Origin: Gemmatimonadota bacterium
Lineage (GTDB): Bacteria > Gemmatimonadota > Gemmatimonadetes > Palauibacterales > Palauibacteraceae
Direction: 5' to 3'
Assembly (NCBI GenBank): GCA_029262175.1
Contig: JAJCZV010000101.1
Span: forward strand, 17,392 to 81,391
Length of the DNA: 64,000 bases
The translations under genes were made by a program, and so were the position numbers. Positions 15,784 through 21,174 of the stretch are shown piece by piece (the stretch's first letter is position 1; each line of letters begins with the position of its first letter). The notes under the pieces were generated by a model. It saw only the letters and a program-made list of their open reading frames with translations, had not been told where the DNA came from and ran no database searches.

Positions 15784-15814
15784 AGCGCCGGAATCGGGGG
15801 AAGAAGTGATCATC
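15784..15814 (-). promoter_or_regulatory. bipartite promoter-like motif GATGATCA-N16-CGGCGCT, copy 4
   Basis: The minus strand reads GATGATCA CTTCTTCCCCCGATTC CGGCGCT. The CGGCG element begins 48 nt upstream of ATG 15742. Architecture matches the copies at 16283, 20651 and 21144. Confidence 0.5.
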
Positions 15815-15848
15815 TGGTGGCCAACGAGCATCGGCCCGAACGAGCGAC

Positions 15849-15879
15849 GGCCCCACTCCGGAAGTTCTGGAGAGGGGCC
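15849..15879 (-). terminator. hairpin downstream of small membrane protein gene A
   Basis: GGCCCCACTCC / GGAGAGGGGCC arms form an 11 bp stem with one mismatch and a 9-nt loop. It lies 27 nt after the stop at 15906. No U-tract follows. Confidence 0.4.
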
Positions 15880-15905
15880 GCGAGTACACCAGCAAAGGAG
15901 GACGG

Positions 15906-16238
15906 TCAGATATCGAAGAGAACGTCGACCGTCGTCAGAATGGCCATCAGAAGCGGAAGCGCGGCCATGTACTGCACTTGGATGCCGTAGAGTGAGTGTC
16001 GCTTCGCCAACAGCACGGACTCGCCGGAGTCCACGTCGATCATCGTCTTGTCTCGACCCGGGTCGTTGACCGCGCGTCCCGAAAACCACAGGGCGAGGGC
16101 CGTGACCAGCCAACCGGCAATGAACCTTGCGTCGGGCGAGAATCCCACGCGCCCCAAGCCAACGAGTGTGAGGACGCCGAGAGCGGCAGCGGCGGTCGCA
16201 AGCAACAGTCCGTATCCCCTCCAAATGATGATCAGCAT
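15906..16238 (-). CDS. small membrane protein, paralog A (110 aa, about 3 hydrophobic segments)
   Basis: ATG 16238 has GGAGG 7 nt upstream. The protein begins MLIIIWRGYG and contains DVDSGESV..KRHSLYGI. It is paralogous to 20759..21103. The longer ORF to 16451 would overlap the giant gene. Confidence 0.7.
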   Translation of the reverse strand: MLIIIWRGYGLLLATAAAALGVLTLVGLGRVGFSPDARFIAGWLVTALALWFSGRAVNDPGRDKTMIDVDSGESVLLAKRHSLYGIQVQYMAALPLLMAILTTVDVLFDI

Positions 16239-16282
16239 GGTAGCCTCCGGTGTTGTCGTGAGCGTCAGTCGGTTCACCACAC

Positions 16283-16313
16283 AACGCCGACAAACCAACA
16301 AAAGCTGATCATC
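16283..16313 (-). promoter_or_regulatory. bipartite promoter-like motif GATGATCA-N16-CGGCGTT, copy 3
   Basis: The minus strand reads GATGATCA GCTTTTGTTGGTTTGT CGGCGTT. The CGGCG element begins 51 nt upstream of ATG 16238. Confidence 0.5.
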
Positions 16314-16320
16314 GGATGCT

Positions 16321-16351
16321 CCCCCCGGGAGACATGCCAGGTCCCGGAGGG
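16321..16351 (-). terminator. hairpin downstream of the giant gene
   Basis: On the minus-strand RNA, CCCUCCGGGA pairs with UCCCGGGGGG (10 bp including one G-U) around an 11-nt loop. It lies 31 nt after stop 16382 and immediately before motif copy 3. Confidence 0.4.
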
Positions 16352-16381
16352 AGCGAGTGGCGTTCCATCGGGGGCAGCCAG

Positions 16382-19300: not shown

Positions 19301-20596
19301 ACCATCCACCCCGGTAAGGAGGGGAGTCGATCCATCTGGTGGGAGCAGGTCACGCCCCACGACGAACAGGATCTTCCTGTTGTAGTTGCTTGGGTCAGAC
19401 GGGTTTGCGACCTCATCGGAGTACGTGAAAGCCAGCCGCCTTCGGAAGCAGTCCTCAGGTTCGACCTCGAAGCAGCGGTCACCCACCACCATGACGCCCG
19501 CCACATATGGATTCTGCGGGGGATATATCTTTTCGTCGAAGCGGCCCCGAAACGTCCGGCCGGAATCGTCGTCCTCGATAAGTGCAACTGGAAACTCGCC
19601 GATCCCATGCTCGTGTAGGGCGTAGGCCAGATCGGTGTGAGTGAATCGGGGCTCGCGGTCGAACGTTGCCTTGACCCAAACCCGACCGTCGTCCGGGTAC
19701 TCGTCGAGCGGCACGAATCCGCCATCAGACTTCGCCTGAAGCTCGATCTCTATGATCCTCGGCGGTTGAGCGATCGGGAGATCGAACTCGACGATCTCAC
19801 CATTGACGACCAAGCGCTTGCTGCCGCCTGCAACCCCCGGCGCCATGTGAACCCAGACATAGAGACGTCCGCCGTCGTCGCGCCGCGAGGTCGAGTACGC
19901 GGTAAGTAGACTGTCCTCGAACAGCACCGAGGGAGGTTCGAGGAAGTCCAGCCCATCTCCATGGATCGCCAACTCGAAGTTTGGGGCGTAACCGACGCGG
20001 CTACTGGCCTCCCATACTCGAAAGGCAGAATCGAGGGCGGCGAGGTCGGTACGCTCCGTTAGGACCGTGCTGTCGATCCGACTGGGTCTCCTCGTCCAAG
20101 TCTCCCGACCTTCCAAGTAGCGGTTGGTATCGTCCTCATCCGCCACAAAACCCCGGCGCAGAGGGGCTTCAGGGAAGGTCGTACTCTTGGTCCAGCGAGC
20201 TCGCCACACGCCGTCGAGACGGTCGAGATCTTCAGAACGGGCGAGCCGGTACTCGACACCTACGAAGTACGGGTAGTAGGACCCTGCCACCGAGTCAGCG
20301 CTGCCGCGAACGCCCCAGGTAGAGAAGCTCAGGCCATCCCACTCGCCGGACAGCTGGGGTCTCTTTTGCACCTCGCTATACTTGAGATTGGCTCTGCCTC
20401 GGACGGTTCCCCGTTCCTCGTCTTCGTACTCGAGGTCCCAGTCGCCGTATAGATACGCGAGGGGGTCTTCAAAGACCGGGGCTGCGTTCTCCGGCGTTGC
20501 GGCCTCCTGACCACCGCCGCCGGCCGCGGCGAAGGCGAGCGCCCCCCCGAGTCCGGCAGTAGCGAGCACCGCTCGTAGAGTATTGATCGTGAACAT
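16382..20596 (-). CDS. 1404-aa signal-peptide protein with a large unassigned N-terminal region, a central hydrophobic segment and a C-terminal protein-kinase-like region
   Basis: ATG 20596 has the SD GGAGGG. The signal peptide is MFTINTLRAVLATAGLGGALAFAAAGG. A hydrophobic stretch lies at about residues 905-940 (SMVAMILSLPLSFLAGPAI). C-terminal motifs are VLGSGAQAMAV, GKVRRL, IVWTDAADGNFGF and VRILDTGG. Confidence 0.85.
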   Translation of the reverse strand: MFTINTLRAVLATAGLGGALAFAAAGGGGQEAATPENAAPVFEDPLAYLYGDWDLEYEDEERGTVRGRANLKYSEVQKRPQLSGEWDGLSFSTWGVRGSADSVAGSYYPYFVGVEYRLARSEDLDRLDGVWRARWTKSTTFPEAPLRRGFVADEDDTNRYLEGRETWTRRPSRIDSTVLTERTDLAALDSAFRVWEASSRVGYAPNFELAIHGDGLDFLEPPSVLFEDSLLTAYSTSRRDDGGRLYVWVHMAPGVAGGSKRLVVNGEIVEFDLPIAQPPRIIEIELQAKSDGGFVPLDEYPDDGRVWVKATFDREPRFTHTDLAYALHEHGIGEFPVALIEDDDSGRTFRGRFDEKIYPPQNPYVAGVMVVGDRCFEVEPEDCFRRRLAFTYSDEVANPSDPSNYNRKILFVVGRDLLPPDGSTPLLTGVDGRVRYSSGFGQQHYHALTVEEIWNEFLGDVPAELRSRARELDGVFVYAAVQPGVLPGEQLELEVNGAGIDWRFETGDRARTMFMINTGDEWQETEDVYRGQVVVVGVRLADVMPMPSIELRARQNGGAARMTGPVVANRSTRDSTLYLTDPIRIVSLESCPGGGCGPGEWAAAATDRLDVSVSEASAKRFAATAPGGAWVRHAQVDAESPWALALNEAAACYGVATGGARADRGNTVDAISNLVLLDLEPHRMSKEKLALQLATLGAVKDIRQLPVRLGDHAALLTLRRAAIATLSARRARLSNIISDDDVRAWGASMEWAIGADAVFPGWPDLQPHIHPLAVLPVEGPLGTTSLANLRNPAMVRESFGDDLGGRSAEYWQVRGLRSGISVYGEKIDASLAMLRAAECDVVDLIDLLGRGFEPLARETMPGLVRFLESPDGANRVVADRTAQTSVESIASLVEAYEAQQGYSRMDSMVAMILSLPLSFLAGPAIEATVMLGEAAFVAHSAYEYTFDHWASGDATQFYIGASESVTDAGRRVRDARAREGSGLGLLVDVVSADLFVRVVARAARAVRVARALRSPTRQLPPQEAAATETLEALGEIEAVRVHLEPEIGVSSVSVRRVPAGTPSKPSPDRDVGNVDAFRGASDQDPDLPTQVDPQQASLQKAALESTKSPVLGRWLVTENGVRTELVITKADVLGSGAQAMAVRAGPGKVRRLPRESLPWTSEDLWAAVDAIAAERGGRRILETSGLDSELVDVAEVLAEFNVHRWVEDGGLAQGGRWESVGPGEVVEYVRPAQEQLGPLAIPDRLRSKLGPDRMTREQAEAYDRALRHLNSRGIVWTDAADGNFGFVRGRSGQLKVRILDTGGIYPAFGRDPETAREAQKLFMGIGQDEVDRLRKLDQLARGSSPAAPTARQRLRADMNAQNQEVFEALSVLCDLDEVDTDTWMFHAWAALKHDEARRLFMQER

Positions 20597-20650
20597 CGTT
20601 CCCTCCGTATCGTGAGTGCGTCGCCCATCGTCGAGGTGGGGCTACTCAGC

Positions 20651-20679
20651 AACGCCGAGAACGACCGCGGATGTGATCA
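20651..20679 (-). promoter_or_regulatory. bipartite promoter-like motif TGATCA-N16-CGGCGTT, copy 2
   Basis: The minus strand reads TGATCA CATCCGCGGTCGTTCT CGGCGTT. The CGGCG element begins 61 nt upstream of ATG 20596. Confidence 0.5.
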
Positions 20680-20696
20680 GTGCGGACGGCAGAGAC

Positions 20697-20731
20697 AAGA
20701 AAAAGCCGACCGAGCGCGAGGCCCGGCCGGC
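20697..20731 (-). terminator. rho-independent terminator after small membrane protein gene B
   Basis: The minus strand reads GCCGGCCGGG-CCTCGCG-CTCGGTCGGC, a 10-bp stem with two G-U pairs. A U-rich tail TTTTTCTT follows. It lies 28 nt after stop 20759. Confidence 0.6.
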
Positions 20732-20758
20732 GAGAGGGTGCCCTTGATCTGTAGGCGT

Positions 20759-21103
20759 TTACGCAACGTTCAGCGCCTCGACAAAGAAGGGGACGACGGC
20801 CGTCGCGGCGATGATGTAGGGCCAAGCGGCGACAGGGATGAAGTACAGTGAGTGCTTCGGCCTGAACGAAGAGACCTCACCCGTGATCGGATCCAACAGC
20901 TCCCGCGTCTCATCGCGCCTCGTGATCCATCTCGTGAGAGTGTAGGTGGCGCCGGCTGCACCAAGGAGAGAAATGGCGAGCGGGGGAGCTATCCCCAGCC
21001 CTAAAGCCACGGCCGCGCTGAACGCCACGCTCGCCGAAACACAGAATCCCAGCATCGCAGCCAACGGAACCAACCAGCCTTTGCCCTTCCAAATGATGAT
21101 CAT
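20759..21103 (-). CDS. small membrane protein, paralog B (114 aa, about 3 hydrophobic segments)
   Basis: ATG 21103 has the SD GAGGGGGA. The protein begins MIIIWKGKGW and contains DPITGEVSSFRPKHSLYFI. It is paralogous to 15906..16238. Confidence 0.75.
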   Translation of the reverse strand: MIIIWKGKGWLVPLAAMLGFCVSASVAFSAAVALGLGIAPPLAISLLGAAGATYTLTRWITRRDETRELLDPITGEVSSFRPKHSLYFIPVAAWPYIIAATAVVPFFVEALNVA

Positions 21104-21143
21104 CGTTCCCCCTCGTTGTTCGTGGTGAGTTCGTTCACTACAA

Positions 21144-21174
21144 GACGCCGAGGTCGCTTCGAAACGTGATCATC
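21144..21174 (-). promoter_or_regulatory. bipartite promoter-like motif GATGATCA-N16-CGGCGTC, copy 1
   Basis: The minus strand reads GATGATCA CGTTTCGAAGCGACCT CGGCGTC. The CGGCG element begins 47 nt upstream of ATG 21103. It lies in the divergent intergenic region shared with the ECF sigma gene. Confidence 0.5.

Follow-up and report, generated by a model that had tools for sequence, protein, structure and literature searches.

Sigma factors of the extracytoplasmic function (ECF) type in group ECF43, such as EcfP and EcfK, are switched on when a neighbouring kinase phosphorylates a threonine residue in their region 2.2 (PMC13147305, PMC8999054, PMC8103513). Other sigma factors need an acidic DAED/DxxD patch to bind the core RNA polymerase (PMC13147305, PMC8999054), and in its place the ECF43 proteins carry the consensus QTTA, with STTA in EcfP and QATE in EcfK (PMC13147305, PMC8999054, PMC8103513). 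Generic ECF promoters are of the GGAAC-N16/17-CGTC type and their prediction usually starts from a motif located upstream of the sigma gene itself (PMC7826278). The RpoE2/ChrR (ECF11) promoters of Shewanella oneidensis, whose start sites have been mapped, read TGATCC-N16-CGTAAT (PMC4336711). A published promoter consensus for ECF43 was not found in the literature covered, the group supplements of the ECF classification lying outside it. Here we describe a bipartite motif, TGATCA-N16-CGGCG, that precedes four consecutive genes within a 64,000-nucleotide (nt) stretch of DNA (the window; all coordinates are its forward-strand positions) and lies beside a divergent pair of genes for a sigma factor and a Ser/Thr kinase. 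We consider it likely that the four copies are ECF-type promoters forming a small regulon, which would most likely be read by the sigma factor encoded at 21266-21916 following its activation by a kinase.

Copies of the motif in the window

Searching both strands of the window for TGATCA-N16-CGGCG returned five exact matches. The number expected was 0.08, as calculated from 100 dinucleotide-preserving shuffles, in which a single match was the maximum and five or more were never reached (0/100). Four of the five matches are located on the minus strand and, according to the map of open reading frames (ORFs), all of them are intergenic, occupying four consecutive gaps between minus-strand genes. 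The sites are listed below, with distances counted from the first C of CGGCG to the A of the ATG and with scores from the 43-nt matrix presented in the following section; lengths of proteins are in amino acids (aa).

21145..21174, minus strand: P1, promoter-like site GATGATCA-N16-CGGCGTC (exact match 21172-21146), 47 nt before ATG 21103 of small membrane protein B; matrix score 26.6
20652..20679, minus strand: P2, promoter-like site TGATCA-N16-CGGCGTT (exact match 20679-20653), 61 nt before ATG 20596 of the 1404-aa orphan gene; matrix score 16.0, the window's fourth best
16284..16313, minus strand: P3, promoter-like site GATGATCA-N16-CGGCGTT (exact match 16311-16285), 51 nt before ATG 16238 of small membrane protein A; matrix score 27.9, the window's best
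15785..15814, minus strand: P4, promoter-like site GATGATCA-N16-CGGCGCT (exact match 15812-15786), 48 nt before ATG 15742 of the 451-aa secreted protein; matrix score 25.2

As expected for ECF promoters, all four sites are placed upstream of a gene, in the gene's own orientation and with a short 5' leader, and their boxes are held apart by a rigid, unconserved spacer of the 16-17-nt class, which measures exactly 16 nt in each of the four. The GA prefix (GATGATCA) occurs in three of the four copies, and the base following CGGCG is T in three and C in one (CGGCGC, 15790-15785). Beyond the boxes, no alignment was obtained among the upstream regions of the four genes, except for the promoters of the paralogous small membrane protein genes A and B, which share some additional similarity. 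No sigma-70-like promoter was found in the motif region.

The fifth exact match (54604-54630, plus strand) is located inside a patatin-like phospholipase gene (54096-55085), reads CGGCGA and falls outside the 15 best positions of the foreign-site matrix in the window, where all displayed scores are at least 4.1. It looks like a chance occurrence. When one mismatch was allowed, the window yielded three more sites with three expected, i.e. nothing above expectation.

A first-pass annotation of the same DNA had already reported the four minus-strand copies, each in front of a gene, and we found them again at the same coordinates and in the same intergenic placement; the spacer of exactly 16 nt was likewise confirmed, and its rough estimate of well under 0.1 chance occurrences compares with 0.08 from the shuffles. 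The distances to the start codons had been measured correctly but described as fixed, when they are only similar (47-61 nt), and the apparently spurious match at 54604 had been overlooked. A solitary GATGATCA at 28992 has, as stated there, no -10-like box 16 nt downstream.

The hexamer TGATCA also occurs at the start codons of both small membrane protein genes (21097-21103 and 16229-16236), within ATGATCATCATTTGG or CTGATCATCATTTGG, which encode M/L-I-I-I-W. These occurrences probably follow from the conservation of the N-terminal peptide.

Conservation of the motif in other genomes

The first-pass annotation had proposed looking for the motif before orthologous genes in related genomes, and it was found there on two metagenomic contigs, L067 and L068. 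The former is a 1.6-kb contig carrying the closest relative of the sigma factor (74% identity). On its divergent strand stands GTGATCG-N16-CGGCGTT, with the first C of CGGCG 48 nt before an ATG (41 nt after the box), and the product of the downstream gene begins with MLFILIWEGLG and is an orthologue of the small membrane proteins of the window. In L068, a hairpin and GGATGATCA-N16-CGGCGTT stand before an orthologue of small membrane protein B (56% identity), and GATGAGCA-N16-CGGCGTT stands before an orthologue of small membrane protein A (start MLIII), which follows directly. P1 and P3 align with these orthologous sites. When the five promoter regions from the three genomes were aligned, the two boxes, a GTGAA block located 5-7 nt after the second box and the ribosome-binding site appeared conserved, while the rest had diverged.

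The orthologues of B and A are adjacent in L068 (512-1054), whereas in the window (15906-21103) the 1404-aa gene lies between the two. This gene and its own promoter copy have therefore either been inserted in the genome of the window or been lost from the other one; this suggests that a gene cassette tagged with a promoter was gained or lost.

A family version of the motif, TGAnC[A/G]-N16-C[G/T]GCGT, adjoins pairs of sigma factor and kinase with a TPR domain at 55-66% identity, and was observed at about ten independent loci. These comprise L023, L024/L062, L027, L030, L063, L064 and L066, all Gemmatimonadota-like contigs, plus L001 from a candidate division KSB1 genome. The family site is usually placed either divergently from the sigma gene or just 3' of the kinase gene, and its distance to the start codon is mostly 27-58 nt. 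In L066 the -10 box has the variant TCGCGCT, and one of the sites has a 17-nt spacer. The genes behind the sites are unrelated; among them are an operon for an RHS-repeat protein, genes for PKD-domain proteins and others for orphans 388-1029 aa long. In L024 and L062 (10615-10641 in both) a copy falls within the sigma gene's 3' end, its first -10 base being 27 nt before the kinase start, which suggests positive feedback on the kinase.

The spacing was examined in 62 non-window loci amounting to 596 kb, where a 16-nt spacer gave 16 matches, the mean over all spacers from 10 to 23 nt being 1.9 (Poisson P ~3e-10). In addition, a 43-nt matrix was built from 11 foreign sites only. Among about 128,000 positions in the window it ranked P3, P1, P4 and P2 first to fourth, with scores of 27.9, 26.6, 25.2 and 16.0, the next position (11.7) being coding. 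The region-4 sequences of the sigma factors also vary with the first box, reading GLSE[V/A]TVRR in the group with TGACCG and GVS.[I/V]TVRR in the group with TGA[T/G]C. Such a difference would be expected if region 4 reads the first box, and is suggestive of it.

Among distant sigma homologues (at most 56% identity, reference genomes), the exact window motif gave one uninformative match, and the relaxed family pattern was needed.

The adjacent sigma/kinase pair and competing explanations

The candidate regulator and its kinase are encoded on the opposite strand to the four motif-bearing genes:

21266..21916, plus strand: ECF sigma factor, candidate regulator, 216 aa, PF07638/TIGR02999, with NATA (T56) in region 2.2
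21933..24731, plus strand: Hanks-type Ser/Thr kinase, with a kinase domain, one transmembrane segment and then a TPR domain

The sigma gene is divergent from that of small membrane protein B and only 162 nt away from P1. Its product matched PF07638 over residues 9-192 (E = 3.8e-51), as well as region-4 models, and scored 198 bits with TIGR02999 against a cut-off of 126. Region 2.2 reads HTLNATALVHEAY, in which N54-A55-T56-A57 replaces the acidic DAED/DxxD patch; T56 is invariant in 11 aligned relatives, within the block HTLN[A/T]TALVHEAY, and corresponds in position to the phospho-threonine reported for ECF43 (PMC13147305, PMC8999054). The kinase is encoded directly downstream (about 21933/22014-24731) and showed a Pkinase domain with E = 3e-41. 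The same pairing of sigma factor and Hanks kinase occurs in L023, L024, L062, L063, L064, L065 and L066. Pfam and NCBIfam detected no anti-sigma domain in the neighbouring proteins, the small membrane proteins among them being unannotated and possibly a novel kind of anti-sigma factor. No motif copy was seen before the kinase gene at 22014.

The first canonical start of the kinase ORF is the TTG at 22014, with no ATG, GTG or TTG in the stretch that separates it from the stop codon of the sigma gene (21914-21916). Translated in frame from about 21933 (LDHERWQKIEDLYAAAL), the sequence nevertheless resembles the N-terminus of homologous kinases, whose genes begin right after their sigma gene; the missing start could be due to a non-canonical start codon such as CTG or to an error in the assembly.

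According to the mechanism that we propose, (GA)TGATCA would serve as the -35 box and CGGCGY as the -10 box, with the 16-nt spacer and its T-rich 3' end between them. Transcription would probably start near the conserved GTGAA, whose position 5-7 nt past the -10 box is suggestive. Each copy would drive its own short unit, namely small membrane protein B, the 1404-aa orphan, small membrane protein A and the 451-aa protein, and the units would be set apart by a terminator or by hairpins. The reader of the sites would most likely be the divergent ECF43-like sigma factor, with Thr T56 where the acidic patch would stand. The membrane kinase, through its periplasmic TPR domain, may sense an envelope or external cue and phosphorylate the sigma factor, which would then bind core polymerase and switch the four genes on together.

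Several observations weigh against this reading. The -10 box CGGCGY is GC-rich and is not the textbook CGTC, and one of the sites, with CGGCGC, has no CGT at all. The sigma gene itself has no motif copy upstream. In L068 the gene upstream of the small membrane protein B orthologue does not encode a sigma factor, and no recognisable site was present in L065, in spite of a sigma factor with 64% identity, in L026 or in several short contigs. The genome has several paralogous sigma/kinase pairs, and the assignment to this particular sigma factor rests on proximity and synteny. Finally, the matrix test is partly circular at the core positions, as the pattern used to find the foreign sites came from the window motif; no such dependence affects the spacing control or the flanking positions (the T-rich spacer end and GTGAA).

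The existence of paralogues makes it conceivable that the sites are ECF-type promoters read by another TIGR02999-type sigma factor, encoded at 3-230 of the window or elsewhere, or by several such factors with cross-talk. A second sigma/kinase-TPR pair of the same family does occur at the window edge, where the C-terminal 76 aa of a sigma factor (3-230) are followed by a kinase (303-3038) and then by a 417-aa orphan (3185-4438). Moreover, there are thousands of homologues at about 60-66% identity, several of them on one contig, the -10 box is common to the whole clade, and the L068 orthologue of small membrane protein B, as noted, has no sigma gene beside it. We nevertheless regard this explanation as unlikely. 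The arrangement of the 21266 gene, divergent from P1 and 162 nt from it, is kept in L067, and a motif divergent from the sigma gene or adjacent to it is the rule in about ten loci. The second sigma factor has TVQRDW in the region-4 helix, whereas all motif-associated sigma factors have TVRR.W, and no TGAnCr-N16-CGGCG site was seen around the second pair (3-3038).

Still less probable, in our judgement, is that the boxes are operators for a conventional DNA-binding regulator, for instance one binding TGATCA, a perfect palindrome, even though GATC-containing operators are common. The element is bipartite, faces the gene in one orientation and keeps strictly to a 16-nt spacer, and its geometry equals that of mapped ECF promoters (PMC4336711). 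In relatives the first box is not palindromic (TGACCG, TGAGCA, TGAGCG). No transcription-factor gene was detected in the module (Pfam, NCBIfam), and the region, as mentioned, offers no sigma-70-like promoter on which such a regulator could act. That the copies are dead leftovers of a local duplication or a chance cluster is very improbable: the small membrane protein genes are indeed paralogous with further upstream similarity and the match at 54604 does look like chance, but only 0.08 matches were expected, the flanks and genes of P2 and P4 are unrelated to those of P1 and P3, and the boxes are kept in two other genomes amid intergenic DNA that has diverged.

ECF-type promoters under the control of the sigma factor at 21266 are thus the explanation that we favour, and the proposal of the first-pass annotation that the divergent sigma/kinase pair governs a regulon of such promoters gains support from the comparison with other genomes.

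Putative target genes, neighbourhood and comparison with described systems

The four predicted transcription units comprise the following features:

20759..21103, minus strand: small membrane protein B, 114 aa, N-terminus MIIIWKGKGW, with hydrophobic segments
20705..20731, minus strand: intrinsic terminator after small membrane protein B, an 11-bp GC stem and then TTTTTCTT
16382..20596, minus strand: 1404-aa orphan protein with a signal-peptide-like N-terminus and hydrophobic segments at aa 907-927 and 981-1000
16318..16354, minus strand: GC-rich hairpin after the 1404-aa gene, strong stem, no T-run
15906..16238, minus strand: small membrane protein A, 110 aa, N-terminus MLIIIWRGYG; the L068 orthologue starts with MLIII
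15847..15881, minus strand: GC-rich hairpin after small membrane protein A, strong stem, no T-run
14387..15742, minus strand: 451-aa secreted protein with a signal-like N-terminus and three predicted beta-sandwich/jelly-roll-like domains

All three hairpins that the first-pass annotation had placed between the units, as hairpins or terminators, were found, and only the one at 20731-20705 is a canonical terminator. A further hairpin at 14300-14386 on the minus strand (-49 kcal/mol, z = -3.4) lies directly 3' of the 451-aa gene's stop codon, where the fourth unit probably ends. No known RNA family was detected in 14000-22000.

None of the four target proteins matched Pfam, NCBIfam or PADLOC, and none had a homologue in the sigma-homologue loci L001-L064. 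Small membrane proteins A and B are distant paralogues (27% identity), and the sole homologue found for B was P0123, the protein encoded on L068, with 56% identity. The 1404-aa protein returned no homologue among 5.8 billion proteins; it also gave no match to PDB sequences, and none to Pfam when searched as three pieces with E up to 1. Its gene has the codon-position GC typical of real genes. For its last 315 residues, AlphaFold gave an unusable model from the single sequence, with a predicted local distance difference test (pLDDT) score of 41, and a kinase-like C-terminus is a tentative impression. The 451-aa protein has six remote relatives, all of them without annotation, and an AlphaFold model calculated from their alignment (pLDDT 78.7) showed three beta-sandwich domains, which gave only generic jelly-roll matches with low template-modelling (TM) scores when compared with PDB folds. 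The "triple repeat" ascribed to this protein by the first-pass annotation thus holds as three predicted domains, and does not hold as sequence repeats, which were not significant.

Directly downstream of the sigma/kinase pair, the minus strand encodes an FHA-plus-trypsin-like protease (24870-26444) and one more Ser/Thr kinase (26441-28123), so that the neighbourhood is dense in phospho-signalling genes. Elsewhere in the window, 4700-6622 on the minus strand encodes a protein of 640 aa that Pfam does not match and that shares 26-28% identity with stretches in L064, L039 and L014. The L064 stretch falls towards the C-terminus of a 988-aa Ser/Thr kinase (gene at L064 4431-7397), and the 640-aa protein may be a free-standing copy of a kinase sensor domain. 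The plus strand at 53079-54051 encodes a conventional ECF sigma factor (region 2 plus region 4) followed by a 119-aa ORF, possibly its anti-sigma factor; this sigma factor is unrelated to the motif.

As a local ECF-type regulon, the system looks like an ordinary but little-studied kind, and it leaves the knowledge of how ECF sigma factors work unchanged; its added value would lie in a consensus for a clade that is large and unstudied. Gemmatimonadota, Planctomycetota, Acidobacteriota and related phyla are rich in kinase-activated ECF sigma factors, whose target genes are, to our knowledge, mostly unknown. The promoter shortcut that relies on the sigma factor's own upstream region fails where the sigma factor is not autoregulated, and a prediction based on autoregulation would miss the sites described here because the sigma gene of the window has no motif copy. 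A conserved consensus beside sigma/kinase pairs would permit regulons to be predicted straight from the genomes of largely uncultured bacteria, and in the window it would tie four orphan envelope proteins to one signalling switch. On a wider scale, we offer as a tentative idea, more doubtful than the local regulon, that TGAnC[A/G]-N16-C[G/T]GCGT is a promoter code, undescribed so far, belonging to ECF43-like sigma factors that are kinase-activated and non-autoregulated and that form a very large clade in Gemmatimonadota and neighbouring phyla. The targets of the clade would be lineage-specific orphan envelope genes, individually tagged with a promoter and gained or lost as single cassettes. 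If this were true, the four-gene set would represent an uncharacterised kinase-switched envelope or secreted system.

With generic ECF promoters, the sites share the bipartite structure, the rigid spacer, a CG-containing -10 box, an 'xxAxC'-like -35 box and the location before sigma-adjacent genes (PMC7826278), although their -35 box has no AAC core. The resemblance to the RpoE2/ChrR promoters is closer, since the -35 box is nearly the same (TGATC[C/A]), the spacer is again 16 nt and the -10 box begins with CG. The two differ in the -10 box, which is CGGCGY here and CGTA[A/T]T there, and in the sigma factor, which is here of the PF07638/TIGR02999 type and accompanied by a kinase instead of the ChrR anti-sigma factor; in addition, the window gives no sign of autoregulation. 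The sigma/kinase pair itself finds its nearest counterparts in EcfP/PknT of Vibrio parahaemolyticus and EcfK/PknS of Xanthomonas citri. Unlike these, it belongs to a Gemmatimonadota-like phylum, as judged by how its homologues are named, its kinase has a TPR sensor domain, and its putative targets are orphan envelope proteins and not type VI secretion system (T6SS) or polymyxin-resistance genes. As in those systems, a two-domain ECF sigma factor stands beside a transmembrane Ser/Thr kinase, the acidic patch gives way to uncharged residues with a conserved threonine, here NATA, and neighbouring genes are the apparent targets. The region-2.2 threonine and the adjacent kinase match the ECF43 group, and by virtue of these features the sigma factor at 21266 appears ECF43-like.

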